A stretch of DNA of 64,000 nucleotides, taken from the NCBI GenBank assembly GCA_964384945.1, contig CAYLMK010000001.1:125859-189858 (forward strand), in the 5' to 3' direction. Within the stretch, counting starts at the first letter, position 1. Each line of letters begins with the position of its first letter. Shown here piece after piece: positions 12,757 through 61,842 of the stretch. A program made the position numbers and the translations under genes. The notes beneath the pieces are model-generated. The model saw only the letters and a program-made list of their open reading frames with translations, ran no database searches and had not been told where the DNA came from. The stretch is from an uncultured Thermodesulfobacteriota bacterium (GTDB taxonomy: Bacteria; Desulfobacterota; DSWW01).

Positions 12757-12794
12757 GGTTCGTCGATCTGCGCGGAAACGCGTGAGTCGAATCT

Positions 12795-12826
12795 GGGCCG
12801 GAGAAAAAGCAAACGTCGTGCCAAGG
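12795..12826 (-). promoter_or_regulatory. sigma-54 (RpoN) promoter: TTGGCACG-N4-TTGCT on the minus strand
   Basis: The reverse complement of 12809-12826 reads CCTTGGCACGACGTTTGC, a perfect -24 GG / -12 GC spacing. It lies about 40 nt upstream of the small membrane ORF start. Confidence 0.6.
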
Positions 12827-14084: not shown

Positions 14085-14154
14085 CGGGCCGGCACACAAC
14101 GGCACCCGAGCCGCTGGTTTCTCATCACGCCCACATGGGCAGGAGGCTGGAATC

Positions 14155-14601: not shown

Positions 14602-15362
14602 CCGGGCGGGATTTCTCCGCCGTTCCTCGTGAGTTCATAGAGCTTCGCGTACTTGACGAACTCGTGGAATGCGGACAGAACGCTTGCGACCAGTCCCGGG
14701 ACCCCGTCCAGGAACCCGCGTTTTCCGACGTATTGTTGCAGGAACATGAAGAGGGGGCTGCCCAGCAACCGGGCGAGGGAGAAGGGTCTGCCGGAGCGGG
14801 CAAGCGAGGCGGCGCTCAGGCCCGTGTATCGCTGAATCGTCTCGAGGTGTTCCCGGATGCTGGGAAAGGAGTAGTGGAGCAAGGGGTGTCGCAGTCTCCC
14901 GCACGGCCCGTCCAGAAGAACCGTTTCGTGCACATCCTGTTCGCCCCAGCGGCCGAGCGCCTTCTGAAACAGCCGCACCTTCAAGTCCGGATACCAGCAG
15001 TGGCGGAGGAATCGCCCCAGATAGCGGGTCATTCTCGGTATCCGATAGCCGGCGAGGTCCGGATCGCGGCTCAGGGTGGACCGGATCTCTTCGGCAAGCT
15101 CGGGGCTCACCACTTCGTCCGCATCCAGGCTCAGCACCCACGGATGGGAAGCCTCCCGGAGTGCAAGCGTCTTCTGCCTTGCATACCCCTGCCACGCGTG
15201 CTGGAAAACCTTTGCCCCGTAACGCCTGGCGATCTGGAGGGAGCGATCGGTGGAGAACGAATCCAGCACCACGATTTCATCGGCCCACGGAACCGCGGAC
15301 AGACACTCCCCCAGGATTGCTTCCTCGTTGAAACAGATGACGACGACCGAGAGCCTTGCCAT
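14592..15362 (-). CDS. family 2 glycosyltransferase (LPS core/KdtX-WaaE-like)
   Basis: MARLSVVVICFNEE...VLDSFSTD...LSLDADE (DxD) GT2 motifs. GGAGG RBS. The track N-terminal 47 aa were rejected. Confidence 0.75.
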   Translation of the reverse strand: MARLSVVVICFNEEAILGECLSAVPWADEIVVLDSFSTDRSLQIARRYGAKVFQHAWQGYARQKTLALREASHPWVLSLDADEVVSPELAEEIRSTLSRDPDLAGYRIPRMTRYLGRFLRHCWYPDLKVRLFQKALGRWGEQDVHETVLLDGPCGRLRHPLLHYSFPSIREHLETIQRYTGLSAASLARSGRPFSLARLLGSPLFMFLQQYVGKRGFLDGVPGLVASVLSAFHEFVKYAKLYELTRNGGEIPPGQM

Positions 15363-15459
15363 GGGTTCCTCCCCTTTCCGGCCTACGAAGTAGGAATCCG
15401 AGGCGCAACGCTCCTCGCTCCACGGAACGAAAAACCGGGGGATCGTGCTCGGAACGAGG

Positions 15460-15975
15460 CTAGGATCGGGAACTCGGGAGGGAAACCTTTTTGTGTTCGT
15501 CAAAGGCGTGCATATGTTTTCCGCCGTCCCAGAGCAGGAAGAAATCCGTAAGGACCTTGTTGTCCCTGTACATGTCCCTTGCCTGCAGCATCTTCGTAAT
15601 GATCCCGTCCAGCCGGTCGAAATCCTCCCTCATCTCCTGCAGGGTCACGTCCAGAACATGCTCGGTCTTCTGCATGGGATAGCCCTGTTCGATCATGTGC
15701 TGCGCCTCGACCAGAATGTTGGCCGCGTGCATCAGCGAAGCGACCTTGGAGCGCAACGAGATTTCATATTCGTTGGCAAGGATCTTCTCCGAGGGGTCGT
15801 CGCCCTTCTTGAACAGCTCGTCCCAGCAATACTTGGCGGCTCGCAGTTCCGCCGCAACGATCTGAAAGAGGCCTTCATACTCGATCTCGGACTTGATCAG
15901 GCTCTGAGAACGCAGGATACTTGCAAACATATCTTTGATAAAATGGTTCATGTTTTTCTTGACGTGGAGTTTCAT
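15460..15975 (-). CDS. hypothetical protein, His/Glu-rich (possibly hemerythrin-like metal-binding), low-GC
   Basis: Visibly lower GC than its neighbours. Motifs H..E / HAFDEH. Overlaps the unused 5' part of the dus track ORF. Confidence 0.4.
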   Translation of the reverse strand: MKLHVKKNMNHFIKDMFASILRSQSLIKSEIEYEGLFQIVAAELRAAKYCWDELFKKGDDPSEKILANEYEISLRSKVASLMHAANILVEAQHMIEQGYPMQKTEHVLDVTLQEMREDFDRLDGIITKMLQARDMYRDNKVLTDFFLLWDGGKHMHAFDEHKKVSLPSSRS

Positions 15976-19393: not shown

Positions 19394-19445
19394 CTCTCCC
19401 CCGTCTCCCCTTGGCCTGCAGGAAAGCCGATGCTCCCCGTGAGCC

Positions 19446-20783
19446 CTATCCTTCCCGCTCACGGATGGCATCGTAAAAAAGCGTATGCTCCGGCACGAAG
19501 ATCAGATCGACCGTTCCGACCGGTCCGTTTCGCTGCTTCCCGATGATGAGCTCCGCCTTTCCCCGGCATTCCGGTTTGTCCCGAAAATAGAATTCCTCAC
19601 GGTAGACGAAAGCAATCAGGTCCGCATCCTGTTCGATCGCACCCGACTCGCGCAGGTCGGCCAGCATCGGCCTCTTGTCCGGCCGGTTCTCCACCCCGCG
19701 GTTGAGCTGCGAAAGGGCCAGGACGGGAACGTTGAGCTCCTTCGCCAGCCGCTTCAGGGAACGGGAGATCTCCGATATTTCCTGAACACGATTCTCGAAC
19801 CTCCCGGACCCCTGCATGAGCTGCAGGTAATCGATGATGATGAGCTCGACTCCATGCTCCCGTCTCATCTGGCGCGCCTTGCCCCGCATTTCCGTCACAT
19901 GCATGCTCGGCGAATCGTCGATGAAGATCGGAGCCCTCGACAGGACGTCGGCGGCCTTGGTGAGCTTCGGAAAATCCGACTTCTTGATATAGCCGGAACG
20001 CAGCTTGGATCCGTCAACCCTCGCCTCGGCGCAGAGCAGCCGGGTGGCCAGTTGTTCCCGGGACATCTCCAGGGAGAAAATCGCAACCGGCAGCCCTTCC
20101 TTCAGGGCGACGTGGGAGGCGATATTCAGGGCAAGGGCCGTCTTGCCCATGCTCGGCCTGCCCGCAAGAATCACGAGGTCCGAGCGCTGCAATCCGGACG
20201 TCTTGTGATCGAAGTCCACGAAGCCGGTGCCGACACCGGAGAGCATTCCCTGTTTGTCGTAAAGTTTTTCGATCGACTGGAACGTCTCCTGCAGGACCGC
20301 CCGGAGGGGGACGAATCCCTGCCGCTGCTGGCTGCGGGAGACCTCCAGAATGGTCTGCTCCGCCCGGTCCAGGAAGGATACCGCGTCCTCGGGCTCCTCG
20401 TAGCCCTGCCGGGCGATCTCCGTGGCGGCCTCGATCAGCCGCCGCAGAACGGATTTCTCCTTGACGATCTTCGCATAATAGAGGATGTTGGCGGCCGTGG
20501 GAACCTCGTCCGCCAGGGAGGCGAGATAGACCGCACCGCCCACCTCCTGAAGCGAGCCCTTCCGATTCACTTCCTCGGTGAGCGTGATCAGGTCCACCGG
20601 GTGGTTCCGCTCCGAGAGGTCCACCATGGCCTGATAGATCTTCCGGTGCGCGTCCCGGTAGAAGTCCTCCTCGCGGAGAATCTCCACCACGTTGGGCATG
20701 GCCCGGTTCTCGAGCAGGATTCCCCCCAGGACCGAGCGTTCCGCCTCGAGGTTCTGTGGGGGAACCCGTTCCAGAAAGCCCAT
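19446..20783 (-). CDS. dnaB: replicative DNA helicase DnaB
   Basis: N-terminal DnaB domain, Walker A GRPSMGKTA, Walker B ELIIIDYLQLM, and the conserved rplI-dnaB context. Confidence 0.95.
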   Translation of the reverse strand: MGFLERVPPQNLEAERSVLGGILLENRAMPNVVEILREEDFYRDAHRKIYQAMVDLSERNHPVDLITLTEEVNRKGSLQEVGGAVYLASLADEVPTAANILYYAKIVKEKSVLRRLIEAATEIARQGYEEPEDAVSFLDRAEQTILEVSRSQQRQGFVPLRAVLQETFQSIEKLYDKQGMLSGVGTGFVDFDHKTSGLQRSDLVILAGRPSMGKTALALNIASHVALKEGLPVAIFSLEMSREQLATRLLCAEARVDGSKLRSGYIKKSDFPKLTKAADVLSRAPIFIDDSPSMHVTEMRGKARQMRREHGVELIIIDYLQLMQGSGRFENRVQEISEISRSLKRLAKELNVPVLALSQLNRGVENRPDKRPMLADLRESGAIEQDADLIAFVYREEFYFRDKPECRGKAELIIGKQRNGPVGTVDLIFVPEHTLFYDAIREREG

Positions 20784-28950: not shown

Positions 28951-29201
28951 CATAGGATCTTTCATCGGAATTGTCAACAAAAAATTCGCCGTCAAACCGT
29001 CCGAGCCCTTCCAGGAGGCCACGACAGGGCGCCGGGGTCCCCCGCGTTCCGAAGGGACCGAAGGATGGGCCCGCAGGTCCGGGCCTCCCGGCCGCCGTCA
29101 CACAGACCCCTCACCTTGCATTCCGGGGTCGGTATCCATATCATAGTGCTTCGCGCGGCCGGCTAAAACATCTTTTCCAATCCTTTGATTACGGACCGAC
29201 C

Positions 29202-31313
29202 ATGGACACGCGTTCTCCTGCGGAACCCCTGCGCTACCTGATCACGGGCGGAGGAACCGCCGGCCACGTCTACCCCGGGCTTGCACTGGCGGAAGGCATT
29301 CGGCGCCATGAGCCGGATGCCGAGTTTCTGTTCGTGGGGGCTCGAAGGGGCGCCGAAGAAAGGATCGTACCCGCACAAGGACATGCGCTCCAGACACTTG
29401 CGGTCAGGGGGATCCCGACCACGACGGGTCCCTTCCTGTGGTTGCAGACCATCTGGCGCCTCGGCGTATCCCTGCTGCAGGCAATCCGGCTGATCCTGCG
29501 GTTCAGGCCCCATGCAATCATCGGAACGGGCGGGTATGCGAGTGCGCCGGTGCTCCTGGCGGCCGTTGTCCTGCGAAGCGTCCGGCTTTGGAAGGGGGTT
29601 CTGAGCCTGCATGAGGCGAACATCATCCCGGGCAGGTTCAACCGGTGGATGTCGGGGTGGGCGGACTTCACGGGCACGAGTTTCCCGGAGACCCTCCGGT
29701 TCTTCTCGAAGAAGAATTCTTTCTGGACGGGCTACCCCCTGCGAAACGATCTGGAGGCGTCCTCGAAACGCAGAGGGCGGGACCGTGAGGAGCCCAAGAG
29801 GCGCCTGGGGATTCCCCCGGCGGGCGAGGTTCTTCTCGTTTTCGGGGGAAGCTCGGGGGCCCGGACCATCAACCGTGCCGTGTTCGAGGCGCTCCCAAGG
29901 CTCCTGCAGCGCGAGGGGCTCACCGTCTTTCACGCCACCGGACACCCGCAGGCGGCATACGACCCGGGGGCGGAATTCCGCGAACTGCTGCCCGGACTGC
30001 CGGTCGACGCGAATGTCGTGCAGTCGCGGTATCGCCGGGAGGAGTATCTGCATCATATCGAAGGCTATTACGAAGCGGCCGACATCGTGGTCTGCCGATC
30101 CGGTGCGGGCGCGATCTGGGAACTCGCCGCCTACGGCACGCCGTCGGTTCTCATACCGAAATCAAACCTGCCGGGGGACCATCAGGTCAAGAACGCCTAC
30201 TTCCTCGCACGCCGGGGACAGGCGCGCATTCTTTTCGAGAAACGACCCGTTCCGCCGGAGCCGGCGGGCTCGGAATCGGTCGATCCGGATGCCTTTGCGG
30301 ACGCCGTTCTGTCGATGCTCGACCGAAAAGGCGGCCCCGAGGATCGCAAGAAGGGCACGCCGGCGCAATCGGAGATCCCTTCCGGGAAGGATCTCTTCTA
30401 CGCTCTTATCCGGCGTTTCCGGGAACGGGGGCGGGCCGAGCCGCCGATCCCGCAGGCAACGGCGGGCCCCGGATGGCGCGAGGAAAAGCCCGGCAGCACC
30501 GCGGCCCGCACCGGGATCGAGTGGATCGGCGCCGAGGCGCTTCTCACCCGTCTGGAGGACGACCGGAAACATAAGCGAGAGCTGCCTGAGGAGGAAAGGG
30601 CATATCTGAAATACAAGACCGATCAACTGCTCGCCTCGCCCCGCTGGCAGGACAGAAACGCGGGGGTCAAGCTCGTCGGAGTCATCGGCTACCGGGAGAG
30701 ACTCCCCACGTTGCTCTACATGGTCACGGACCGCACCCCGGCGGCCTGGCACCGGAGGCTGCTGGGCGGGGACTTTGAACAGGTGGGATTCATACGACGC
30801 AATGCACTGCAGGCCGTATGGCGGCTTCGCACGTGCGGTCCCGCCGTCAGGGAGGCCCTGCGAATCGCCCTGCGGGACCCTTATTACGAGGTGCGGTCCT
30901 GGGCGGCCCGCGCGATCGAAAGGCTTTCCCCGGAGATCGGGGAGGACGAGGAGATGGTTCGCCTGCTGCGAAGGAACCTGAAGGACCGCTGGTTCGAGGT
31001 GGTCGTATCCTCGCTGAGGGCCCTGGCCATGATCACGAAGGATCCGAACATCCTCTCCGACCTGATCCCCCTTCTCAGCCACAAGAACTGGAAGGTGCAG
31101 CAGGCGACGGTCCGCTGCCTGACGAGGCTCATGCAGGCCGATGTCATCCGTCTGTCGAAAGAGGCGGAGGAATGGGTCAACAAGATCCCGATGAAGGGGC
31201 TGGACTTCTTCCCAAGCTTCCCGCTCAAGCAGACCTGGGAAGACTTCCAGCGTGTGCTCTCCGAGAAGGCGGCATGCGAGAGGCCGCCGGAAACGAACAA
31301 GGGGGCCTGCTGA
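29202..31313 (+). CDS. murG: MurG (GT28 UDP-GlcNAc:lipid I transferase) fused to a C-terminal HEAT-repeat domain
   Basis: ITGGGTAGHVYPGLALAEG N-motif and SGAGAIWELAAYGTPSVLIP...HQVKNA C-motif of MurG. Followed by about 250 aa with HEAT/PBS-lyase-like repeats (YYEVRSWAARAIERL, WFEVVVSSLRALAMI, NWKVQQATVRCLTRL). The track N-terminal 77 aa were rejected. Confidence 0.75.
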   Translation: MDTRSPAEPLRYLITGGGTAGHVYPGLALAEGIRRHEPDAEFLFVGARRGAEERIVPAQGHALQTLAVRGIPTTTGPFLWLQTIWRLGVSLLQAIRLILRFRPHAIIGTGGYASAPVLLAAVVLRSVRLWKGVLSLHEANIIPGRFNRWMSGWADFTGTSFPETLRFFSKKNSFWTGYPLRNDLEASSKRRGRDREEPKRRLGIPPAGEVLLVFGGSSGARTINRAVFEALPRLLQREGLTVFHATGHPQAAYDPGAEFRELLPGLPVDANVVQSRYRREEYLHHIEGYYEAADIVVCRSGAGAIWELAAYGTPSVLIPKSNLPGDHQVKNAYFLARRGQARILFEKRPVPPEPAGSESVDPDAFADAVLSMLDRKGGPEDRKKGTPAQSEIPSGKDLFYALIRRFRERGRAEPPIPQATAGPGWREEKPGSTAARTGIEWIGAEALLTRLEDDRKHKRELPEEERAYLKYKTDQLLASPRWQDRNAGVKLVGVIGYRERLPTLLYMVTDRTPAAWHRRLLGGDFEQVGFIRRNALQAVWRLRTCGPAVREALRIALRDPYYEVRSWAARAIERLSPEIGEDEEMVRLLRRNLKDRWFEVVVSSLRALAMITKDPNILSDLIPLLSHKNWKVQQATVRCLTRLMQADVIRLSKEAEEWVNKIPMKGLDFFPSFPLKQTWEDFQRVLSEKAACERPPETNKGAC

Positions 31314-31314
31314 C

Positions 31315-32427
31315 ATGTTCCAAGCGCTTTACGGCTGGTTCTACGACCCGGAGGGACCGTTCTCGTTCATCCGGCTCTTTTATTACATCAGCAGCCGGAC
31401 CGTCTTTGCGATCATCACCTCCTTCGTCTTCACGCTTCTGGCGGGAAGGCCGTTGATCCGGGCCCTGTACCGGATGGGGATGCGGGACACGCAACGGGCA
31501 GAGATGGTGGAAGCGCGGGAACACAAGAAGGGGGGGACGCCCACCATGGGAGGCGTCATCCTCTTCTCGGCCACCATGCTCTCCGCTCTCTTGTGGTGCG
31601 ACCTGACGAATCGATTCATCCTCTTTCTTCTGGCTGCCTCCGTGTGGTTCTTCGCGCTCGGATTCTGGGACGATATGCGTAAGATCAGGCACCGGGACAG
31701 CAACAAGGGCCTTTCCCGAAGAATGAAGTACGCCGGACAGATCTCCTTCGGCCTGCTCCTGAGCCTGTTCTTTCTCCATCCGTCGACCTCCCCGGTGCCC
31801 GCTACGGTGGTCTCGAAGTTCTATATTCCTTATTACAAGTACCCCCTTGCGGATCTCTCCTGGGGATACACGATCGTGATCGTGCTCTTCGTCGTCTACG
31901 CAGCGAACGCGATCAACTTCGCAGACGGAATGGACGGGCTCGCCATCGTCCCTTCCGCGTACGCCATCGGCGTCTATGGAGTTTTCGCGTACATGCTGGG
32001 TAACGCAAAGTACAGCCAGTATCTCATGTTCGATTATCTGCCCGGCTGCGGCGAGGTGAGCATCCTGTGCGCCGCCCTGCTCGGTGCCTGTGCCGGATTT
32101 CTTTGGTACAACAGCTATCCCGCTGAGATCTTCATGGGCGACACCGGATCCATGTTCCTGGGGGGTGTCCTGGGAACGATGGTCGTGCTCCTGAAACAGG
32201 AGGTTCTTTTTCTCATCGTGGGCGGCATCTTCCTCGCCGAGATTCTCTCCGTTGCGCTCCAGGACTGGATCGGCATCCAGCGAACCGGACGGCGATTCTT
32301 GTATCGGGCGCCCCTGCACCACACGTTTCAGTACCAAGGGCTGGCCGAAACCAAGATCACGGTGCGTTTCTGGATCGTCTCCGGCGTACTCGCGCTGTTG
32401 GCGCTTGGGTCGTTGAAGATCCGTTGA
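31315..32427 (+). CDS. mraY: phospho-N-acetylmuramoyl-pentapeptide transferase (MraY)
   Basis: KKGGTPTMGG, NAINFADGMDGLA, MGDTGS and PLHHTF motifs. Its ATG lies 1 nt after the murG stop. Confidence 0.8.
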   Translation: MFQALYGWFYDPEGPFSFIRLFYYISSRTVFAIITSFVFTLLAGRPLIRALYRMGMRDTQRAEMVEAREHKKGGTPTMGGVILFSATMLSALLWCDLTNRFILFLLAASVWFFALGFWDDMRKIRHRDSNKGLSRRMKYAGQISFGLLLSLFFLHPSTSPVPATVVSKFYIPYYKYPLADLSWGYTIVIVLFVVYAANAINFADGMDGLAIVPSAYAIGVYGVFAYMLGNAKYSQYLMFDYLPGCGEVSILCAALLGACAGFLWYNSYPAEIFMGDTGSMFLGGVLGTMVVLLKQEVLFLIVGGIFLAEILSVALQDWIGIQRTGRRFLYRAPLHHTFQYQGLAETKITVRFWIVSGVLALLALGSLKIR

Positions 32428-45817: not shown

Positions 45818-47095
45818 TCAGGTCGACGATTTCAGGAGAGCCTCGATGACGTCGCCGGACAGAAAGTCCGGATGGCCGTGCCAGCGTATCCGACCCTGGG
45901 AATCGACGGCGACCACGCACGGGATGTTCTTGACGGCCATCTCCTGGGAGGTCTTCCCCTCTTCGTCCACACCCGTGGGGTAGCCCATGGGATGGCCGTC
46001 GATGTACTCCCGGATCTTCTCGACCCCCTGCCCCGAGGCCAATCGAGTCACGCCGATCACGGAGACGCCCTCTTTTGCGTAGGTCTCCCGCAGATGTTCC
46101 ATCTTGGGGATGTTTCGTCTGCAGTGGGGACACCAGACAGACCAGAAGGTCAGCAGTGTAAGCCTGCCCCCATAGGTGCCGGGCTCCCGCGGGGGCTCAC
46201 CGATCCATTCCTGCACCTTAAGGGGCGGGGCCTGAGAACCCACGAGCCCGATTCCGTCGAGCTTGGTCTTGGCCTTCTCCGCCAAGCCCGTGTCGGGATA
46301 CCGCTCCGTGATCTCTCGGAAGACCCTCTCCGCGCCTTTCAGGTCCGGTTCGCTCAAGTGCAGGTTTGCAAGCTCGAAAAGCGACTTGCCGGCAAAGGGG
46401 TGATCCGGATAGGCATCGGCCGCCTTCCGGAATGCCTTTCGGGCCTCGCCGGGTTGCTGGAGGGAGGCAAGGGCTTCCCCGAGGCAAAAAAGCGCCTCGG
46501 CCCCGATCTCCGCATTTCCGCGGTGCTCCTTCGACAGTTCCCGGAAGATCTCCTCGGCTTTCCGAAGGTGTTTTACCCCGAGGGGATCCCGGCCGTTCAG
46601 GAACGTCTGCTGTCTGCCCGTGGCCAGGTAGGTCTGCCCCTTGCTCATCAGGAACCGGGGGACGGCCGGGCTGTCCGGATAGCGCTCGAGCAGCAGATCG
46701 AACTGGCGGATCGCCTCGTCGTATGCTCGCAAGAGCATCCAGGCCTGCGCCAGGGTGAACTGAACCGTCTCGGCCCAGGGCGCGTCGGGAGATCGCTTCA
46801 GGAGTTCCTGAAGTTCCCGGACCGCGGACGCCTGCCCCCCCCGCCGAAATTCGTCCTGGATGCGCAGGAATTCCTTCCGGCTTTCCGGATCGTCCCGGAA
46901 CAGCGACTGGAAATACTCCGGAATGGAGAGGGGCCGTTCCGTTCCGGACCTGTTCCGTTCCGATGAGCCCTTGCATCCGGCCGAACCCACGGCGAGAACG
47001 GAGAAGATCAGCAGCGTGAAAAGCACGCTTCGGAGGGAGACCGGCGTCCGCCGGCCTTGTTGCCGCGCCATACTCCGCCAGCCAGTCTTGTCCAT
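45818..47095 (-). CDS. TPR-repeat / TlpA-like thioredoxin (redoxin) lipoprotein
   Basis: Signal peptide and lipobox (LAVGSAGC). TPR region, then a C-terminal thioredoxin fold with WCPHC active site. Strong RBS AGAGGAGGAAGGG before the ATG at 47095. The upstream part of the track ORF is antisense to aroE. Confidence 0.75.
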   Translation of the reverse strand: MDKTGWRSMARQQGRRTPVSLRSVLFTLLIFSVLAVGSAGCKGSSERNRSGTERPLSIPEYFQSLFRDDPESRKEFLRIQDEFRRGGQASAVRELQELLKRSPDAPWAETVQFTLAQAWMLLRAYDEAIRQFDLLLERYPDSPAVPRFLMSKGQTYLATGRQQTFLNGRDPLGVKHLRKAEEIFRELSKEHRGNAEIGAEALFCLGEALASLQQPGEARKAFRKAADAYPDHPFAGKSLFELANLHLSEPDLKGAERVFREITERYPDTGLAEKAKTKLDGIGLVGSQAPPLKVQEWIGEPPREPGTYGGRLTLLTFWSVWCPHCRRNIPKMEHLRETYAKEGVSVIGVTRLASGQGVEKIREYIDGHPMGYPTGVDEEGKTSQEMAVKNIPCVVAVDSQGRIRWHGHPDFLSGDVIEALLKSST

Positions 47096-47278
47096 CGACG
47101 CCCTTCCTCCTCTTGCGATGTGCTCATCCCGTTGCAACTCCGAGGTGCGAAAGAAAACTATTATATTCCCCCGTGCCACGGCGCGCAAGCACTCCCGGTT
47201 TCGTATCCGGAGGATATGCGGTAGACTCCTTGAGAGTCTCGTCCGGTTCGGCGGCCCTCGTACCCGGGAGGATTCGTC

Positions 47279-48130
47279 ATGAAGATCGATGGCAGGTCGC
47301 GCGTCTGCGCTGTGATCGGAAACCCGGTGGAACACTCCCTTTCCCCGCTCCTTCATAACGCGGCGTTCCGAGAGAAGGGGCTCAACATCTGTTACGTGGC
47401 CTTTCGCGTGCACGATCTGGCGGCGGCCATGGCCGGGGTCAGGGGCCTGAACATCCTCGGTCTGAGCGTCACCATCCCCCACAAGGTCGCCGTCCTGGAG
47501 TATCTCGATGAAATCGAGGAGACCGCCGGGAGAATCGGTTCCGTCAATACGGTCCTTCACAAGGACGGACGGCTTATCGGCTACAACAGCGACGGCATGG
47601 GCGCCGTCCGGGCCCTTCGGGAGGCGAACGTTCCCCTTGCGGGGGAAAAGGTCAGCCTTCTGGGCTCGGGGGGCGCCGCCCGGGCGATCGCCTTCACTCT
47701 CGGCAGGGAAATCGCCCTGCGGGAGATCGCTCTGCTGGGCATCGAGGTCGATGAATGCAGACGGCTTGCGGAGGATCTCGAAAAGGCGCTGCCTTTCCCG
47801 ATCACCTGGGACAGATTGAATCCGGAAACCTTGCGCCGTCACGTTCCCGAATCCGCCGGCGTCATTCATTGCACGCCCGTCGGGATGACGCCCCATGTGG
47901 AGCAGAGCGTCCTGGATCGAGCCTCGCTTCGCCCCGAACAGTTCGTCTTCGATATCGTCTACAATCCGCTCAAGACGCGCCTGCTCCGGGAGGCGGAATC
48001 CGCCGGGTGCCGCACCGTCCCCGGCGTCGAGATGTTTCTCCATCAGGCCGTCTTCCAGTTCGAGCTCTGGACGGGGCAGCAGGCCCCGGTCGACTGCATG
48101 CGGCGTGTCGTGATGGAGGCCCTCTCATGA
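47279..48130 (+). CDS. aroE: shikimate dehydrogenase
   Basis: GNPVEHSLSP substrate motif, NADP Rossmann GSGGAARA, catalytic K/D. Confidence 0.9.
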   Translation: MKIDGRSRVCAVIGNPVEHSLSPLLHNAAFREKGLNICYVAFRVHDLAAAMAGVRGLNILGLSVTIPHKVAVLEYLDEIEETAGRIGSVNTVLHKDGRLIGYNSDGMGAVRALREANVPLAGEKVSLLGSGGAARAIAFTLGREIALREIALLGIEVDECRRLAEDLEKALPFPITWDRLNPETLRRHVPESAGVIHCTPVGMTPHVEQSVLDRASLRPEQFVFDIVYNPLKTRLLREAESAGCRTVPGVEMFLHQAVFQFELWTGQQAPVDCMRRVVMEALS

Positions 48131-52437: not shown

Positions 52438-54345
52438 TCACGAGGCCCCGTCCAGGGTCGGCATCTTGTATCGCTTCAGGGCCTGGTATAGGACGATTCT
52501 CGTCTGGGGGCCGAGGATGCCGTCCTCCTCGAGGAAGTGATCCCTCTGGAAGGCCATGAGCGCTTCGGCCGTCTTCGGGTCGAAGACCCCGCTCGGCTCC
52601 GACCCGTAGTAGCCCAGATCCCGCAGGGAGGACTGCATCTGCCCGATGGTTCCGCCCTTCATCCCCTCGGCCAGGTACCTCTTTTCCCCCCATTCGTCCT
52701 TCCACAGGACGTAAGCAGTGCCGTACCAGAGGGACTCCAGCACGCTCAGCGGCACGAGCGAGGCGCCGTCGCTGAGCGGGGGAGCAATCCTGGCCGCCTC
52801 CCCCTCGAAGGCAAGGAGGCCCACGTATCTCTTCGTCATGTTCTTGTCCAGCCGCAGTTCCAGAAGCGCCGGAAGATTCAGGGCTCGAAGCCGATTGACG
52901 TTCCCCCACAGCCGCAGACACTGGAATCCCACGGCCTTCGAGGCCGTAAAGAGATCCGGGGCGCCGCGGTAGAGCCTGCGTGCCTCCTCTTTGGAAAGCC
53001 CGGAATCCCATTTCCCCAGAACGGCGAGGAAGGCCTCCTCACGCGTCTCCAAGAGCGGCTTGCTGTACAGCGCGCGGAGGATCTGTTCTTCGATACCGGC
53101 CGAGGGATCCCCAGTATCCTCCGATTCGAGCAAGGCAGATTCCTCGATCGACGCCCGCGGCGCCGGGCCGGCCTCGGCCGTCTCGTCGGGGTCCCGGCCG
53201 GCTGCCGGCTCCCCTGCAGCCTCCGGCCGGGGCGTCTGCGGCTCTTCCTCCGTGATGGGTCTCGGAGGGGATGCCGTCTCCGGAGATTTCGATGCGAGAA
53301 GGGCGGGCGTCTCTGCTTCCTCCGGCGGACCCGAACCCGGGACGAGGGCTTCCGGGGCGGTTTCTCTGTCGGAAGCGGCCGCCTGCTCGGCGGCGGCCCC
53401 CTCCCCCCTCGCCTTCGGCTCTTCGGCGAGATAATCTCGGAGCACGATCACGAGCAGGACGAGGAAGACCCCGAGGAGCGAGGCCGGAACGAGCCCGCGC
53501 CGGACCGCCCGGCCGACGGTCGGGCTGACCGCCCAGGCTGGCCGTCCGGTGACCTCCCTGCTCGCCCGATCGACCATCGGCCCGTCGATGTTCTTGATCC
53601 TCTGTCCGTAACCGGCCAGCAGCGCGCGGTCGCAAAGGACGTTGATCAGCCGCGGCACCCCTCTCGTATGCCGCCAGACCCGCTTCAGCGCATCCGGCGA
53701 GAACAAGATCTTGTCCGACGCATCGATGACGGAGAGACGGTGTCGGATATACTCGGCCGTCTCCGCCTGTGAAAGCGCCCCGAGGTGGTATCGTACCGTG
53801 ACACGCTGATTGAGCTGAAGGAGGCGGGGTTCCTCCAGAATGTGGCGGAATTCGGGCTGCCCGATCAGGATGATCTGCAGCAGCTTCTCGGTCTCGGTCT
53901 CCAGGTTGGACAAGAGACGAATCTGCTCCAGAACCTCTCCGTCGAGGCTCTGCGCCTCATCGATGATGAGGACCGTGTTCTTGCCTTCCCGGCGCTTTTC
54001 CAGCAGGAACCGGTTGAGTTCGTCGATGAGTTCCTTCTTCGTCGTCCCCTGCGAGGGGATCCCGAAATCCTCGTTGATGCTCTTGAGCAATTCCAGAGCG
54101 GACAGAGTGGGATTGAAGATGAAGGCTACCAGCGTGTTTTCGTCGAGATGTCTCAGCAGCCCCCGGCAAAGGGTGGTCTTTCCCGCGCCGATCTCCCCGG
54201 TGATCACGATGAACCCGCCCCGCTCCCGTATGCCGTACAGGAGGTGGGCAAAGGCCTCCTTGTGCGTCTTTCCGAGATAGAGGAACTTGGGATCCGGGGT
54301 GATCGAGAATGGTTTTTCAGCGATACCGTAAAAGGAACAGTACAT
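52438..54345 (-). CDS. gspA: ExeA/GspA-like AAA ATPase with C-terminal peptidoglycan-binding domain
   Basis: Walker A GEIGAGKTT, Walker B LIIDEAQ, TM segment, low-complexity Pro/Glu/Ala linker, C-terminal PG_binding_1-like motif (LGYYGSEPSGVFDPKTAEALMAFQRDHFLEEDGILGPQT). Confidence 0.8.
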   Translation of the reverse strand: MYCSFYGIAEKPFSITPDPKFLYLGKTHKEAFAHLLYGIRERGGFIVITGEIGAGKTTLCRGLLRHLDENTLVAFIFNPTLSALELLKSINEDFGIPSQGTTKKELIDELNRFLLEKRREGKNTVLIIDEAQSLDGEVLEQIRLLSNLETETEKLLQIILIGQPEFRHILEEPRLLQLNQRVTVRYHLGALSQAETAEYIRHRLSVIDASDKILFSPDALKRVWRHTRGVPRLINVLCDRALLAGYGQRIKNIDGPMVDRASREVTGRPAWAVSPTVGRAVRRGLVPASLLGVFLVLLVIVLRDYLAEEPKARGEGAAAEQAAASDRETAPEALVPGSGPPEEAETPALLASKSPETASPPRPITEEEPQTPRPEAAGEPAAGRDPDETAEAGPAPRASIEESALLESEDTGDPSAGIEEQILRALYSKPLLETREEAFLAVLGKWDSGLSKEEARRLYRGAPDLFTASKAVGFQCLRLWGNVNRLRALNLPALLELRLDKNMTKRYVGLLAFEGEAARIAPPLSDGASLVPLSVLESLWYGTAYVLWKDEWGEKRYLAEGMKGGTIGQMQSSLRDLGYYGSEPSGVFDPKTAEALMAFQRDHFLEEDGILGPQTRIVLYQALKRYKMPTLDGAS

Positions 54346-54526
54346 AACCCTATTTCCATCCCGCATGTCTGGGCACGCAAGGTGGATCTTATGAGAAAAG
54401 CGGCGGAATAGCAAGACAAACGCGTTCCGGCTCCCCACCGCTGCACCCCGGAAGTTCGTTGACAGAAATTCCATACCTGTGTTAGACAGTTACAGGGCCG
54501 GTGCTCCTGGAAACGGAAGGCAAGCC

Positions 54527-56600: not shown

Positions 56601-56771
56601 GCCCGCGACGGCACCGTCTCCTCGCCGATCCCCTTGCCTTTCGGCGGGCATCGCGAGAAGATGATTGCGGCAGCGGGCCGCGGGTTCCCCATGCCCTGCC
56701 GAGAGCGCCCGCCGGCCGCTTCCAGACGAGCCGAAAGAAAAAAGGGATCCGAAGGGACAGCATTTTCAGCC

Positions 56772-57629
56772 ATGAAGAACACACCGCCGAAGGAAGGCAC
56801 ATCCAACCGCGCAAAACGAAAACTCTCTTCGCTGGTCAACCGTGGAATACGGGCCACGCTCCAACGAACGAGCGTTCAGAGGATCTACGAGTCCATGGTA
56901 TGGAGCCAGATCCGTGGAGGGCCCATCCCCGAACACATCGGCGTGATTCTGGACGGCAACCGCCGCTGGGCCCGCAGACGAGGGCTGGATCCCTGGAAAG
57001 GGCACGCGCAGGGCGCCAAGAAGATGGAGGACTTCCTGGACTGGTGCGGGGAGATCGAGGAGATCCGTTCGGTCACGCTCTATGCCTTCTCCACAGAAAA
57101 CTTCAAACGCTCGGAGAAGGAGGTTTCCGAGATCTTCCGGCTCCTCAAAGAGTACCTGCATACCCTTCTCAAGGACGAGCGGGTCCACAAGAACCAGATC
57201 CGCGTCAAGATGCTCGGCAGGCTCGAGATGCTGCCGGAGGAGTTCCAGGCGCTGATCCGTCAGGTGGAGGAAAAGACGGCGAACTACCGGGAGCACTACC
57301 TGAACTTCTGCATCGCCTACGGAGGCAGGAGCGAGATCGTGGATGCGGTCCGATGCCTTGCCCGCGATGTCAAAGAGCAGCACCTCGATCTCGAGGCGAT
57401 CGACGAGAAACGAATCGAGAGCTACCTCTACACCGCTCACCTGCCCAAGTGCAATCCGGACCTGATCATCCGCACGTCGGGCGAGGTGCGCCTGAGCAAT
57501 TTCCTGACCTGGCAGGGCGCTTACAGCGAACTCTGTTTCGTGGATGTTTACTGGCCGGACTTCCGGAAGCTCGACCTGCTGCGGGCCATCCGCATGTACC
57601 AGCACAGGCAGCGCCGTTTCGGCGGATAG
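56772..57629 (+). CDS. uppS: isoprenyl transferase (undecaprenyl diphosphate synthase-type cis-prenyltransferase)
   Basis: HIGVILDGNRRWA, YAFSTENFKR and RTSGEVRLSNFLTWQ motifs. Has an N-terminal extension; the start could be as early as 56634. Confidence 0.85.
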   Translation: MKNTPPKEGTSNRAKRKLSSLVNRGIRATLQRTSVQRIYESMVWSQIRGGPIPEHIGVILDGNRRWARRRGLDPWKGHAQGAKKMEDFLDWCGEIEEIRSVTLYAFSTENFKRSEKEVSEIFRLLKEYLHTLLKDERVHKNQIRVKMLGRLEMLPEEFQALIRQVEEKTANYREHYLNFCIAYGGRSEIVDAVRCLARDVKEQHLDLEAIDEKRIESYLYTAHLPKCNPDLIIRTSGEVRLSNFLTWQGAYSELCFVDVYWPDFRKLDLLRAIRMYQHRQRRFGG

Positions 57630-57645: not shown

Positions 57646-58632
57646 CTACCGGCGGGCAAGGACCTCCTCCATCCTCGCCCGTATCTCCTCGCGGGTGACG
57701 ACCGCGGTTCCGAGTTTCTCGACCACGAGCCCCCCTGCAACGTTGCTCAGGACCGCCGCCTGCCGAAAGCTCGCACCCACCACCAGGGCGGAAGTGAAAA
57801 CGGCGATGACCGTATCCCCGGCGCCGGAGACATCGTAGACCTCCCGGGCCCTGGCGGGAATCGCGAAGGGAGGCTTCGACGCCTCGAAGAGACACATGCC
57901 CTGCTCCCCCATCGTGATCAGCACAGCGTCGCTCTCGAGCCTCGCCAGCAGCCGGCCGCCCGCCTCGTGGAGCCCTCTTTCGTCCTCGATCGGAACGCCC
58001 GCCGCCTCTTCCGCCTCCAGCCGGTTCGGCGTGATTGCGGTGACCCCTTTGTAGAAATCGAAGTGGTCCCTCTTCGGGTCCACGGTCACGATCTTTCCGA
58101 GGCCCCTGGCCATGGGAACGATCTCTCGCAGAAGCCCCTCCTGAATCACCCCCTTGCCGTAGTCCTCCAGGATCAGGGCGTCCACACCGGCGACCGCCTC
58201 CCGCAAGTGACCCTTCATGTCCTCCAGGCCCTTGCCCGCCAGGGCCCTTCTGTCCTCGCGGTCCACCCGAACAACCTGCTGCTTGTGCGCGATGATCCGC
58301 GTCTTCAGGATCGTGGGCCGCCCGGAATCCCGGATGACCCGTCCGGTGTCGATCCCTTTCTGATGCAACATCTCCAGCAGCATGCGACCGTGGGAATCGT
58401 CTCCCACGACCCCGCAGATGCCCACCGAGACGCCGAGGGCATTCAGGTTGTTGGCCACGTTGGCGGCGCCGCCGAGCGAAAAGCTTTCCCGGACCACATC
58501 CACCACAGGGATGGGGGCCTCCGGGGAAATCCGGCTCACCTTGCCCCAGATGTATTGATCCAGGATCAGATCCCCGAGAATCAGGATCCTGGCCCGATCG
58601 AATCCATCGAGAATCCTTCCCAAGCCTTCCAT
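57646..58632 (-). CDS. D-glycero-beta-D-manno-heptose-7-phosphate kinase (RfaE/HldE domain I, PfkB-type kinase)
   Basis: ILILGDLILDQYIWGKVSRISPEAPIPVV..., and the PfkB sugar-kinase motif DVSGAGDT. No domain II (adenylyltransferase) in this ORF. Confidence 0.8.
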   Translation of the reverse strand: MEGLGRILDGFDRARILILGDLILDQYIWGKVSRISPEAPIPVVDVVRESFSLGGAANVANNLNALGVSVGICGVVGDDSHGRMLLEMLHQKGIDTGRVIRDSGRPTILKTRIIAHKQQVVRVDREDRRALAGKGLEDMKGHLREAVAGVDALILEDYGKGVIQEGLLREIVPMARGLGKIVTVDPKRDHFDFYKGVTAITPNRLEAEEAAGVPIEDERGLHEAGGRLLARLESDAVLITMGEQGMCLFEASKPPFAIPARAREVYDVSGAGDTVIAVFTSALVVGASFRQAAVLSNVAGGLVVEKLGTAVVTREEIRARMEEVLARR

Positions 58633-58871
58633 CGAACCCCCTCCGGAGACGGCGCCTTGACGCCGGGTATGGGCTTTCTTGACGCTCGAAGCGGCCGAGC
58701 AATCGGTCGCAAAGCATTGGCGAGCCAACAGAGCGGGTCCGATTATACGGGAGCGGCGAGCGAAGGGTCAACGCGTTTGCGCGAGGCCAAGACGGCCTCC
58801 GGTCCTTTTTGTACAGTCAAAAACCTCTTGTTTTTTCGCTGGTTGGATACGGAGGGGCGGGGCCGTTCCGT

Positions 58872-58900
58872 TTGTCTTTTCCCCTTGCTATGCATATAAT
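58872..58900 (+). promoter_or_regulatory. sigma-70-type promoter (-35 TTGTCT, 17-nt spacer, -10 TATAAT) upstream of the receiver-AAA-HTH-LpxC gene
   Basis: Read directly in the sequence, about 65 nt upstream of the ATG at 58968. Confidence 0.45.
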
Positions 58901-58967
58901 GCCTGCTGTCCCGGCCGCCTTTGCGGATCAGGCTCGAGCAACCCATTCCACAGGAAGAACCCCTGCC

Positions 58968-61196
58968 ATGTTCAAGGCCAAGCTGCTCGTCGTCGACGAC
59001 GGAGAGGACATCCTCAGCATGCTCAGCGGGAGCCTCGAAGATGAGGGCTACGAGGTCTGGACGGCTCGAGACGGGGCCGAGGCCATGCAGCTCGTCCGCA
59101 CGAAACATCCGGACATCATCTTCCTGGACATCTGGCTCCCCGGCATGGACGGCATCCAGACCCTGAAGGCCATCAAGGAATTCGATGCCGACATCGACGT
59201 CGTCATCATGACCGGACATGGCACCGTAGGGACGGCCGTTCAGGCCATCAAGCTGGGCGCGGCCGACTTCCTCGAGAAGCCCCTGTCCCTGGATCTCGTC
59301 CTGGATACCATCCGAAGGATCCTCGAACAGAACCTCCTCCAGAGGGAGGGCGGGCCGGAGGCAAAGCTACGCAGTCCGCGCAGGGACGAACTGATCGGTA
59401 ACAGCCAGGCGGTGCGTGACCTCCGGAAGGAGATCAACCGCGTGGGAAAGGAGGAGGGGCCGGTTCTCATCGTGGGAGAGCCGGGGGCGGGCAAGGAACT
59501 GGTCGCCCGGGTCCTCCACAGCAGGAACCTGGGCAAGAGGAGGCCTCTCATCAAGTTTGCGAGCACCATATGGCCTGAGGAAGAACTGGAAGAAGAGATC
59601 TTCGGCCCGGACCCGAACGGATCGACGAAGCGAAAAGAAAACCGGAAGTCGCTTTTCGAGCAGGCCTCCGGCAGGGTTCTCTACCTGGATGCGATTGACG
59701 AACTCCCTCTGCCCGTCCAGACGCGGCTCGCCCAGGTGCTGGCCGAACGCAAGAAGGTCCGCTCGGCTCCTTCCGGCCTGCCGAAAGGGCCGGTCCGCAT
59801 CATCGCCTCCACCACAAGGGACCCGGACAAGGGAAGGCGGGACGGCGTTCTCAGCGAGGAGCTTCTCGAATGCTTCCAGGGACGCATCTTGAAGATTCCG
59901 CCCCTTTCCGAAAGGAAATCCGACATTCCGGACCTGACCCGCTTCTTCCTGAAGACCCTTTGCATGGACTACGGAAGAAGGCCGAAAGAGATTGACGACG
60001 AGGCCCTGCAGACCCTGGTCGCCTTCGACTGGCCCGGCAATGTCAAGGAACTGAAGAACATCGTGGAACGTCTTGTCATCTCGGTCCCGATCTCCAGGAT
60101 CACGGCCCGAGACATCCCGCCCTCGATCCGAGGCAAGGCCCCGGCGCAGGCGGAAGGCGCGAGGAGCCAGGCCTTCGAGATCTGGGATTCCTACCGGGAG
60201 GCCCAGCAATCCTGGGAGAAGGAATACCTGCTCTACCATATCAAGAAGAACGAGGGGGACCTGAAGACAACGGCCAAGGCCCTTCACATGGACCCGCGAC
60301 GGCTGGCCCGGAAGGCGGACAAGCTGGGCCTCTTGAGCAAGCCCGAGGCCTCCAAGCCGGTCCTGAGGCAGCGGACCCTGCGGCGAAGCGTGGTCCTGGC
60401 CGGGCAAGGCCTCCACTCGGGGGTGAAGACAGGTCTGATTCTCACCCCTCTACCTCCGAACAGCGGCATTCTGTTCGGAAACATCTCGACCGGCGAGGTC
60501 GTCCCGGTGCACGTGGACCACGTGCAGTCCACGGGGTACGCAACCTGCCTGCAAAAGGGCGCAACCTCCGCGAAGACGACGGAGCATTTTCTCGCCGTAC
60601 TCCACAGCTACCGCATCTCCAATCTGCTCGTGAAGATCGAAGGCGAGCTGCCGATCATGGACGGTTCTTCCCTGGACTTCTGCGCCATCGTCGAAGACGC
60701 GGGCATCGAGGAACAGGACGAACCGCTCGAGGAGATCGTCATCGACAGGAAATACGTAATCGGCAAGGAGGGGCCCGACGAAAAGTTCCTCCGGATCGAG
60801 CCGGCCGACACCTTCCAGGTCCACTACCTGCTCCATTACCCGGAGCCCATCGGAAGGCAGGAGGTGGATTTCACCCTCAAGAGCGAGAAGGAGTTCAAGG
60901 AGCTGATCGCCCCGGCCCGGACCTTCGGCTTCCTCAAGGACATCGAGAAGATGGAAAGCATGGGGCTCGCGAGCGGCGGCAAGCTCACCAACGTCATTCT
61001 GGTGGACGAAGAGAAGGTGGTGAACACGACCCTGCGGTTTCCGGACGAATTTGCGCGGCACAAGATCCTGGACATCCTGGGGGACTTCTACCTGCTCGCC
61101 AGGCCGGTGCGCGGCAGGATCACGGCCCAGAAGACGGGGCACTCGGAGAACGTGGCCATGATGCGGATGATCCGGGAGCAGATGAAGATTGTCTGA
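58968..61196 (+). CDS. lpxC: fusion protein: response-regulator receiver + degenerate NtrC-type AAA+ domain (no GAFTGA) + Fis-type HTH + full-length LpxC
   Basis: Receiver: LLVVDDGED, IIFLDIWLPGMDG, VIMTGHG, FLEKP. AAA+: GEPGAGKELVAR, Walker B VLYLDAIDEL; the GAFTGA position reads GPDPNGSTKRK. Fis HTH: LARKADKLGL. Linker SKPEASKP. LpxC: RQRTLRRSV..., TTEHFLAVL, ARTFGFLKDIE, HKILDILGD, KTGHSEN (all Zn/catalytic residues present). No stop codon between the domains. Confidence 0.75.
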   Translation: MFKAKLLVVDDGEDILSMLSGSLEDEGYEVWTARDGAEAMQLVRTKHPDIIFLDIWLPGMDGIQTLKAIKEFDADIDVVIMTGHGTVGTAVQAIKLGAADFLEKPLSLDLVLDTIRRILEQNLLQREGGPEAKLRSPRRDELIGNSQAVRDLRKEINRVGKEEGPVLIVGEPGAGKELVARVLHSRNLGKRRPLIKFASTIWPEEELEEEIFGPDPNGSTKRKENRKSLFEQASGRVLYLDAIDELPLPVQTRLAQVLAERKKVRSAPSGLPKGPVRIIASTTRDPDKGRRDGVLSEELLECFQGRILKIPPLSERKSDIPDLTRFFLKTLCMDYGRRPKEIDDEALQTLVAFDWPGNVKELKNIVERLVISVPISRITARDIPPSIRGKAPAQAEGARSQAFEIWDSYREAQQSWEKEYLLYHIKKNEGDLKTTAKALHMDPRRLARKADKLGLLSKPEASKPVLRQRTLRRSVVLAGQGLHSGVKTGLILTPLPPNSGILFGNISTGEVVPVHVDHVQSTGYATCLQKGATSAKTTEHFLAVLHSYRISNLLVKIEGELPIMDGSSLDFCAIVEDAGIEEQDEPLEEIVIDRKYVIGKEGPDEKFLRIEPADTFQVHYLLHYPEPIGRQEVDFTLKSEKEFKELIAPARTFGFLKDIEKMESMGLASGGKLTNVILVDEEKVVNTTLRFPDEFARHKILDILGDFYLLARPVRGRITAQKTGHSENVAMMRMIREQMKIV

Positions 61197-61842
61197 CAAG
61201 CCCCCCGATAAGACCGGCGACGCCTCTTCCGCCATACGACCCTGGCCTCTGCTGGACTCGAGGGTCCTGCACGCCTTTCCGATTTACAGGCTCCGTCAGG
61301 ACACGCGTCAATCCCCGCGAACCGGGAAGAGACACGATTTCCTCGTCCTCGATTCCAAGGACTGGATCAACGTGGTTTCCGTGACTCCGGAAGGAAACCT
61401 GGTCCTGATCCGCCAGTTCCGCCACGGAACCGCTTCCATAGTCTGGGAGATCCCGGGCGGAATCATGGACGAGGAGGACGAGAGCCCGGAGCAGGCGGCC
61501 CGGCGGGAGTTGCTGGAAGAGACGGGCTACGAACCCGAAGAAATGGTATTCCTGGGGGCCGTTCATCCCAACCCCGCCATTCAGAACAACCGGTGCCACA
61601 CGTTCCTGGCCCGCAACGCCCGGCCGATCAAGTCGCAGCGGCTGGACGGCTCGGAAGATATCGAAGTCCGGGAAGCCTCGTGGGCCGAGGTCTCCCGGAT
61701 GGTCGATCAGGGGCTGATCTCTCACTCTCTTGTGCTCACGGCCCTCTTCTGGTACGAACGACACCTGGCAAAACTTCCTCCCCCACCCCCACCGGCCAAG
61801 GCATCGCTCGAGGAGGTCGCGGCCCTGCTCAGACAGGGCTGA
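61189..61842 (+). CDS. NUDIX hydrolase (ADP-sugar pyrophosphatase-like)
   Basis: Nudix box GGIMDEEDESPEQAARRELLEETG. TTG start overlapping the last codons of the upstream fusion gene. Confidence 0.75.
   Translation: MSDKPPDKTGDASSAIRPWPLLDSRVLHAFPIYRLRQDTRQSPRTGKRHDFLVLDSKDWINVVSVTPEGNLVLIRQFRHGTASIVWEIPGGIMDEEDESPEQAARRELLEETGYEPEEMVFLGAVHPNPAIQNNRCHTFLARNARPIKSQRLDGSEDIEVREASWAEVSRMVDQGLISHSLVLTALFWYERHLAKLPPPPPPAKASLEEVAALLRQG

Follow-up and report, generated by a model that had tools for sequence, protein, structure and literature searches.

What is an LpxC enzyme doing at the end of a response regulator, and does the regulator act on the enzyme? The question is raised by one gene at 58968..61196 (+) in a 64,000-nucleotide stretch (hereafter, the window) of contig CAYLMK010000001.1, assembled from an uncultured Thermodesulfobacteriota bacterium. 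Its product of 742 amino acids (aa), delimited by its open reading frame (ORF), by Pfam and NCBIfam profiles and by homologue searches, carries a phospho-receiver (REC), an AAA+ domain, a Fis-type helix-turn-helix (HTH) and LpxC, in this order. An earlier note on this DNA had described four modules in one uninterrupted frame, which proved correct, and had suggested direct two-component control of LpxC. Comparison with related proteins and loci lends support to that suggestion from three sides, namely short receiver-LpxC proteins, kinase genes adjoining the fusions, and clusters in which the same parts are encoded separately. The reading preferred here is that an lpxC-dedicated two-component system has been fused to its target enzyme, yielding a response regulator with LpxC as its output. 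We put the probability of this reading at roughly 0.55. What the sequences themselves show is the architecture and its conservation, the residues that are retained or lost, the gene contexts and the types of promoter; the ancestry of the fusion, and control by phosphorylation together with its direction, are inferred. The observation has gained in strength over the earlier note, since the gene belongs to a large family that spans several phyla and has a recognisable unfused state resembling an ancestor.

One reading frame with four modules

The frame is open from the ATG at 58968 to the stop codon at 61194-61196. Of the four Pfam profiles proposed in the earlier note as a check on the architecture, three match: Response_reg (PF00072) at aa 7-115 (6e-30; 104 bits), Sigma54_activat (PF00158) at aa 142-300 (1e-27; 97 bits against a cut-off of 20.2) and LpxC (PF03331) at aa 468-735 (3.5e-79; 266.5 bits against a cut-off of 27), the last covering model positions 1-266 of 268. 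AAA_lid_14 matches aa 315-396 (2e-22; 80 bits). The fourth profile, HTH_8 (PF02954), scores 13.8 bits (E 0.048), below its cut-off of 22 bits. Conservation of individual residues is counted below in an alignment of 119 full-length members of the four-module family, referred to as the long form.

The LpxC domain (aa 467-742; 60366..61193, +) exceeds the cut-off of the NCBIfam equivalog model for lpxC, TIGR00325 (230.5 bits against 187.25). The C-terminal 286 residues align with residues 3-277 of Pseudomonas aeruginosa LpxC, and in that alignment the E-H pair, T191/F192, the H-K-x-x-D-x-x-x-D motif and the second catalytic histidine are all in place. The corresponding motifs of the window protein read TTEH, ARTFGF, HKILDILGD and TGHSEN. 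Residues E539, H540, T652, H698, K699, D702, D706 and H725 are the same in every one of the 119 long forms; the reference residues in Escherichia coli LpxC are H79, H238 and D242 for zinc, and E78, H265, T191, K239 and D246 for catalysis and substrate. Profiles, alignment and invariance thus agree with the claim of the earlier note that every zinc and catalytic residue is present. The TIGR00325 match ends at model position 276 of 297, so the window LpxC has no extended C-terminal tail. Two features are invariant in the LpxC domains of long and short fusions alike and differ in P. aeruginosa LpxC, namely Cys572 (in the pair F-C; 60681-60683) and the motif Y-x3-Y-P-x-P-x-G-x-Q (aa 620-631; 60825-60860), and both are candidates for a fusion-specific interface.

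The receiver (aa 1-120; 58968..59327, +) is canonical, as had been claimed: D10 and D11, the phospho-acceptor D54 within IIFLDIW (codon 59127-59129), T82 and K104 are all present. D10, D11, D54 and K104 are invariant in all 119 long forms, and position 82 is threonine in 115 and serine in four.

The AAA+ core (aa 142-300) and lid (aa 301-396), at 59391..60155 (+), are of the NtrC/NtrX type and catalytically degenerate. The Walker A motif GEPGAGKE (59475-59498) retains the P-loop lysine K176, which is kept in 118 of 119 members. In Walker B, LYLDAI (59679-59696), alanine replaces glutamate (D241-A242), and across the family this position is alanine or serine, with glutamate in only three of 119. 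The GAFTGA loop is replaced by FGPDPNGSTKRKENRKS in the window protein and is a variable loop elsewhere in the family. The arginine-finger region reads LSEELLECF, the finger is absent family-wide, and sensor II is lysine in 119 of 119 members. Neither GAFTGA nor the arginine-finger motif occurs in any of 154 long-form fusions, whereas most of the nearest stand-alone regulators carry both. The losses of GAFTGA and of the Walker B glutamate, noticed before in this one protein, are therefore traits of the whole family. As a sigma-54 activator the domain passes the PF00158 profile, but it lacks GAFTGA, the Walker B D-E pair, the arginine finger and the sensor-II arginine. Judged by these residues, it is probably ATPase-dead, with nucleotide binding likely retained.

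The HTH (aa 409-455; 60192..60332, +) is best described as a Fis-type remnant. The earlier note had called it intact, which is true in part: it aligns with the C-terminal HTH of Brucella NtrX, three helices are modelled at aa 409-452 in a structure model of the full-length protein, and it is under selection (below), but it stays under the HTH_8 cut-off. Another family member, P0289, passes the same profile with 26.9 bits. Between the HTH and LpxC lies a linker of 11 residues, LSKPEASKPVL (aa 456-466; 60333..60365, +), modelled with low confidence at aa 458-462. Its sequence varies across the family, and the stretch that spans it (aa 452-470) has the same length in 112 of 119 members.

Taken as a whole, the regulator part resembles NtrX. 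Residues 4-454 of the window protein align end to end with residues 4-453 of Brucella abortus NtrX (PDB 5M7N; E 3.8e-78), and both proteins consist of a receiver, an AAA+ domain without GAFTGA and a Fis-type HTH. They differ in that NtrX keeps the Walker B DE, the FREDLFHRL motif and the sensor-II arginine, all three of which the fusion has lost, and in that NtrX has no enzyme domain. The NtrX model NF051870 is the best NCBIfam regulator match for the N-terminal 455 residues, at 351.5 bits against an equivalog cut-off of 600 bits.

Long and short forms in uncultured bacteria

The same chain occurs in at least 150 protein clusters from independent JGI, ENA, NCBI and Logan assemblies, with full-length homologues ranging from 94% down to about 40% identity. 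Counted by assembly, the architecture turns up independently in hundreds of cases, far more than chance could produce. The earlier note had asked whether the fusion is conserved in related genomes, and evidently it is. In a search of 5.8 billion proteins, among the 120 clusters in the matches listed, all but two are full-length (720-768 aa, 94-48% identity), and all have the receiver, AAA+ and LpxC Pfam domains except one truncated copy without the receiver. An exhaustive HMMER scan of 1.84 billion representatives at 50% identity gave about 12 full-length representative clusters together with reduced forms. The long form is reported from Thermodesulfobacteriota/Desulfobacterota, Nitrospinota and Candidatus Schekmanbacteria, and all known carriers of the fusion are uncultured. 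One neighbour-joining tree was made; it is rough, and no claim of a single origin rests on it.

Ratios of non-synonymous to synonymous substitution rates (dN/dS, Nei-Gojobori) within the window's own clade are 0.07-0.14 for the receiver, 0.11-0.23 for the AAA+ core, 0.07-0.14 for the lid, 0.05-0.28 for the HTH and 0.04-0.12 for LpxC, the most conserved module. Since the values are low throughout, the degenerate AAA+ and HTH modules are still under purifying selection.

An assembly or annotation artefact (a missed stop, a frameshift or a chimeric contig) is a practically negligible explanation of the fusion. A stop or frameshift at the HTH-LpxC junction, named in the earlier note as grounds for refutation, is not seen in the relatives; the chain is uninterrupted in all four sets of assemblies, with a linker-spanning stretch of one length, and codon-level purifying selection extends across the junction. 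The sole broken copies lie on visibly error-ridden contigs. In one of these (L005, 3443-4806) the regulator part is divided between two reading frames, and in the other (L019, 4800-6900) the kinase, RuvB and receiver-LpxC genes are all fragmented. Two apparent stand-alone LpxC proteins nested among the fusions were rejected, P0170 as an artefact of the frameshifted contig L019 and P0159 because its sequence begins inside the linker.

A second group of proteins, the short forms, has 419-456 aa (about 426) and consists by Pfam of Response_reg and LpxC alone, without AAA+ and HTH. They are very common in a search seeded with one of them, and are reported from Candidatus Binatia, Thermoanaerobaculia and 'Deltaproteobacteria', some on contigs of 4.5-4.9 Mb. 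An alignment of 41 short forms shows no variation in the receiver quintet (which has serine at the hydroxyl position) or in the catalytic residues of LpxC. The linker, of 25-50 residues, is low in complexity, variable and disordered. Despite this linker, one short form modelled with AlphaFold2 reaches a predicted local distance difference test score (pLDDT) of 85 and a predicted template modelling score (pTM) of 0.81, which hints at a defined arrangement of receiver and LpxC.

Intermediates also occur (P0125 and P0139), in which the AAA+ domain and lid are kept and the HTH is shortened or missing. P0139 (695 aa) is a divergent pseudo-receiver variant, with serine in place of the phospho-acceptor aspartate (VILVSLWLPG), an E-N-D acid pocket, the Walker A sequence GEVGSEHE, and about 22 residues between lid and LpxC. 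The receiver and LpxC are the sole modules common to all fusion forms.

The short form recalls CheB, a receiver-methylesterase in which the unphosphorylated receiver restrains the active site. Both follow the same plan of receiver, flexible linker and hydrolytic enzyme, with output domains unrelated in sequence, and a CheB-like restraint is a plausible working model for the short form by analogy. The long form is unlike CheB in that its input is separated from its output by a dead AAA+ domain and an HTH.

No receiver-LpxC or NtrX-LpxC protein is described in the literature searched (full text), to which Galperin's response-regulator censuses do not belong; within it the architecture is new, and 'LpxC' is not listed as a response-regulator output. 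The suggestion that the architecture was undescribed therefore stands for that literature, but not for the databases, where such proteins are abundant under the automatic names 'NtrX' or 'LpxC'. The sole LpxC fusion mentioned in the same literature is LpxC-FabZ/FabA. LpxC-FabZ (PRK13188; FCB/PVC groups) resembles the present family in coupling LpxC to a partner in lipid homeostasis, but that partner is a C-terminal metabolic enzyme and not an N-terminal signalling module.

Unfused clusters, kinases and gene neighbourhood

At least 21 metagenome loci carry, in order and on one strand, a stand-alone lpxC gene, an NtrY-like kinase gene and a gene for a REC-AAA+-HTH regulator; metagenome loci were picked by an LpxC peptide pattern and by similarity to the whole fusion, and frequencies among them are not population estimates. 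The kinases of these unfused clusters are 32-52% identical over about 660 residues to kinases adjacent to fusions. Their regulators are 41-57% identical to the fusions in the receiver and 33-39% over the whole regulator, and score 228-296 bits against the N-terminal part of the window protein, most of them 276-296 bits, which is as close as any stand-alone protein among the 1.84 billion representatives. Among 22 unfused regulators, GAFTGA, the Walker B DE and the arginine finger are each kept in 18 and the sensor-II arginine in all 22, so most of them are intact sigma-54 activators. By similarity, the regulator part of the fusion is closest to NtrX and to these lpxC-linked activators of the NtrC family. 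Because its closest stand-alone relatives mostly carry GAFTGA, the NtrX-like appearance of the fusion may have arisen by convergent loss.

In 13 of 18 unfused loci (L055, L056, L059-L061, L064, L066, L067, L074, L080, L082, L084 and L085), lpxC is preceded at a distance of 37-74 nt by a near-consensus sigma-54 promoter, TGGCAC-N5-TTGCT (9-10 of 11 positions), at roughly locus positions 950-1650, which is usually the sole such site within a locus of 6-11 kb. About 100 nt upstream of these promoters there is an inverted repeat, TGTGTC-N6-8-CACA, often doubled, which looks like a putative activator binding site. Taken together, the stand-alone clusters suggest a sigma-54 regulon devoted to lpxC in uncultured bacteria. 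In 53 fused loci, by comparison, there are three weak sigma-54 matches, which is background level (0.05 per kb).

A related layout has been published. In Desulfovibrio vulgaris, lpxC is the single mapped target of the response regulator DVU2934, and the orthologous operon of Syntrophobacter fumaroxidans has lpxC immediately upstream (PMC3333781). This layout matches the unfused clusters. The unfused clusters share with the fusion the kinase family, the regulator subfamily, to which DVU2934 may also belong, and the partner lpxC; such lpxC-dedicated sigma-54 systems differ from the fusion in that lpxC is a separate gene under transcriptional control, whereas in the window the enzyme lies within the regulator and the gene has a sigma-70-type promoter. 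In Rhodobacter and Caulobacter, NtrYX represses lpxC transcription, and NtrYX is linked to the cell envelope (PMC7240162, PMC12444477).

The promoter of the window gene, located by promoter scan, is TTGTCT-17-TATAAT at 58872..58900 (+), matching at 10 of 12 positions, and both hexamers are kept in five of six aligned related loci (L013, L001, L002, L003 and L005). Upstream of the gene there is no sigma-54-like site. A ribosome-binding site, AGGAAG (58952..58957, +), stands 10 nt before the ATG; it is retained in L013, L001 and L002, with purine-rich variants at the same position in L003-L005. An alternative in-frame start, the TTG at 58809, is unlikely: the conserved promoter and ribosome-binding site fall between this codon and the ATG, and the start is therefore placed at 58968. 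Just upstream of the -35 hexamer, at 58820-58850, lies a conserved block, AAAACCnnTTGTnTTC...TTGGA, common to L013 and L001-L003, a candidate operator. It is unlike the inverted repeat of the unfused clusters, of which inspection by eye showed no copy ahead of the window gene.

Kinase genes adjoin several fusions. Upstream of the long forms in L006, L007, L015 and L022, the gene for a kinase of 745-751 aa ends 10-80 nt before the fusion gene; the kinase domains are NtrY_N (weak match), HAMP, PAS, HisKA and HATPase_c. A kinase of NtrY architecture is encoded directly upstream of the short forms in L016-L019, one of NtrY-like type lies 18 nt upstream of a short form (P0362) on a circular 4.93-Mb contig, and NtrY-like kinases are found in 10 of 36 short-form metagenome loci with enough upstream sequence. 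NCBIfam gives the adjacent kinases no specific NtrY assignment, and 'NtrY-like' refers to their domain order and weak NtrY_N matches. Other members are orphans without an adjacent kinase. Neither Pfam on all large ORFs nor tblastn with the NtrY-like kinase of L015 revealed a histidine kinase in the 64-kb window.

The genes around the fusion are related to lipopolysaccharide (LPS) and to the envelope. Upstream lie uppS, for undecaprenyl/polyprenyl diphosphate synthase (56634..57629, +; TIGR00055, 268 bits against a cut-off of 110), and a divergent gene for D-glycero-beta-D-manno-heptose-7-phosphate kinase, rfaE domain I (57646..58728, -; TIGR02198, 381 bits against 345). The true start of the heptose-kinase gene is probably downstream of 58728, and its promoter by the scan is TTGACC-18-TATAAT, from 58771 to 58742 (-). 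Downstream, an ORF for a NUDIX hydrolase (61189..61842, +; a weak NudE-like match) has an uncertain start; if it begins at the TTG at 61189, it overlaps the fusion stop codon by 8 nt, and it is probably co-transcribed with the fusion gene. With the gene for a glycosyltransferase of family 2 (GT2) at 14592-15503, the LPS-related neighbours described in the earlier note are all borne out. The order uppS, divergent heptose kinase, fusion and NUDIX is conserved in the window clade down to 70% identity. In L013/L014 and L020, too, the next gene after the fusion is a NUDIX gene, which overlaps the fusion by 8 nt in L020 and is called 35 nt after the stop codon in L013; no such gene lies beside distant fusions in the loci examined. 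In L020, the 70% identical relative, the block is flanked (1-3738 and 11761-14223) by genes for Lon, a hexapeptide-repeat protein and a glycosyltransferase of PMT_2/STT3 (ArnT-like) type, which extends the envelope-related context.

Farther away, the window encodes a 780-aa protein of unusual architecture (28971-31313, +), with the N- and C-terminal domains of a MurG-like GT28 glycosyltransferase and C-terminal HEAT repeats, followed by a Glycos_transf_4 gene of MraY/WecA type (31252-32427). Two other envelope-related proteins are a 741-aa protein with TPR repeats and an AhpC/TSA thioredoxin-like domain (45818-48043, -) and a 678-aa protein with an AAA_22 ATPase and a peptidoglycan-binding domain (52438-54474, -). 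The sole other receiver in the window is a single-domain protein (7845-8318, -). Directly upstream of its gene, and overlapping it, is an ORF of 462 aa (8257-9645, -) with coding-like G+C content at third codon positions and no Pfam match; a 762-aa ORF (17183-19471, -), coding-like by the same measure, matches neither Pfam nor NCBIfam. The window has two tRNA genes and no rRNA gene.

Readings of the fusion

Similarity scores and gene context point to descent of the fusion from lpxC-linked activators. The ancestor would have been an NtrY-like membrane kinase and an NtrC-family sigma-54 activator encoded beside lpxC and driving a sigma-54 promoter of that gene. In one lineage LpxC would have become joined to the C-terminus of the activator; the GAFTGA loop, the Walker B glutamate, the arginine finger and the sensor-II arginine would then have been lost, with the gene placed under a sigma-70 promoter. 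In other lineages the AAA+ domain and HTH would have been deleted, leaving receiver, linker and LpxC, and throughout these changes the phospho-acceptor pocket and the LpxC active site would have stayed invariant. As the receiver pocket and the enzyme's active site alone are kept throughout, the most economical reading is that the enzyme itself is the target of phosphorylated D54. D54 would receive its phosphate from a sensor kinase that is unlinked in this genome, and the resulting change in conformation or dimerisation of the receiver would pass through the AAA+/lid scaffold, which is ATPase-dead and still selected, likely binds nucleotide, and would set the oligomeric state. The outcome would be altered activity, active-site access, oligomeric state or stability of LpxC, and hence an altered flux into lipid A. 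The retained HTH may bind DNA as well, for example in autoregulation or at the divergent heptose-kinase promoter. That a sigma-54 circuit was in this way short-circuited onto its own target enzyme, with the dead AAA+ ring serving as a phosphorylation-controlled oligomerisation scaffold, is a more tentative proposal, held at somewhat less than even odds.

Several points weigh against this reading. The window gene is an orphan regulator, with no adjacent kinase there or in the relatives of its clade, and among short-form loci with enough upstream sequence the share with a kinase, at about 30%, is low. The full-length model (pLDDT 80, pTM 0.45) gives no confident geometry between domains, and in the short forms the length and disorder of the linker make allosteric coupling not obvious. 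The gene orders differ, lpxC-kinase-regulator in the unfused clusters against kinase-regulator::LpxC in the fused loci, so that the fusion needed a rearrangement and its ancestry is deduced rather than traced; the selection of loci, moreover, favours those that have both parts. Finally, selection on the AAA+ domain and HTH fits equally well a regulator that acts on DNA independently of the enzyme.

This last point leads to the main rival explanation, in which the protein has two jobs without coupling. It would be an NtrX-like, DNA-binding regulator of the sigma-70 type, phosphorylation would control DNA binding only, at targets such as its own and the heptose-kinase promoters, and LpxC would be a constitutive passenger whose fusion merely secures co-expression or localisation. 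Such a protein would account for the purifying selection on the HTH and AAA+/lid in the window clade, for the end-to-end alignment of the N-terminal 454 aa with Brucella NtrX, itself a DNA-binding regulator without GAFTGA, for the otherwise unexplained conserved block at about 58820-58850 in a promoter region shared with an LPS-core gene, and for the lack of fixed inter-domain packing in the full-length model. Yet it cannot apply to the short forms, since LpxC is their sole possible output; these have no DNA-binding module and nevertheless keep an invariant phospho-acceptor pocket, often with a kinase upstream. Besides, no module is harder to recognise than the HTH, which intermediates such as P0139 have in reduced form or not at all, and the length of the stretch spanning the HTH-LpxC linker is constrained. 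On balance we consider this explanation unlikely for the long form, though it deserves serious attention.

Enzyme-derived sensor domains are known in other regulators, and LpxC could in principle be such a domain, sensing UDP-3-O-acyl-GlcNAc or a lipid A precursor while a separate LpxC catalyses the reaction. This would entail a second lpxC in the genome; none was found in 98 LpxC-bearing sequences (the window and 97 other loci). Across 119 long and 41 short forms no zinc or catalytic residue varies, LpxC is the module with the lowest dN/dS (0.04-0.12) and passes the TIGR00325 equivalog cut-off, and in the short forms LpxC alone can be the output, all of which makes a sensor role very improbable. 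Somewhat less improbable, yet still doubtful, is control of LpxC turnover by phosphorylation, with the receiver and AAA+ domain acting as a conditional degron or as an adaptor for Lon or FtsH in place of the C-terminal degron and LapB route of enterobacteria. In the FtsH/LapB(YciM)/YejM system of E. coli, proteolysis proceeds through a C-terminal degron, whereas in the fusion LpxC ends right after its fold (model position 276 of 297) and a phospho-receiver is covalently attached. Proteolysis is established for E. coli LpxC and Lon has been proposed in some alphaproteobacteria (PMC12444477), and in L020 a lon gene lies about 3.5 kb downstream. No conserved protease gene adjoins the fusions in the neighbourhoods examined, however, and no degron was identified; turnover control would in any case be a predicted sub-variant of the preferred explanation.

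If the more tentative proposal of a short-circuited sigma-54 circuit holds, LPS homeostasis would be achieved in a hitherto unknown and phylogenetically widespread way, in lineages reported as Thermodesulfobacteriota, Nitrospinota, Schekmanbacteria, Binatia and Thermoanaerobaculia, and the family would document how regulation can migrate from a promoter to the protein itself. A review of lipid A regulation from 2025 names proteolysis, a small number of protein partners and indirect effects on transcription, and no receiver-LpxC mechanism (PMC12444477). For the control of LpxC outside the enterobacteria, this family offers a directly testable alternative. The unfused, sigma-54-driven lpxC genes, the fusions with a dead AAA+ domain and the minimal receiver-LpxC proteins form a natural series, in which one may ask what signal the kinase perceives and how phosphorylation acts on the enzyme. 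The family would provide a clean example of a pseudo-ATPase under selection, and it exposes a systematic problem of annotation, in that proteins of this one kind are named for either their regulator or their enzyme. Regulators with enzymatic outputs are already known, and to these outputs the family would add LpxC.

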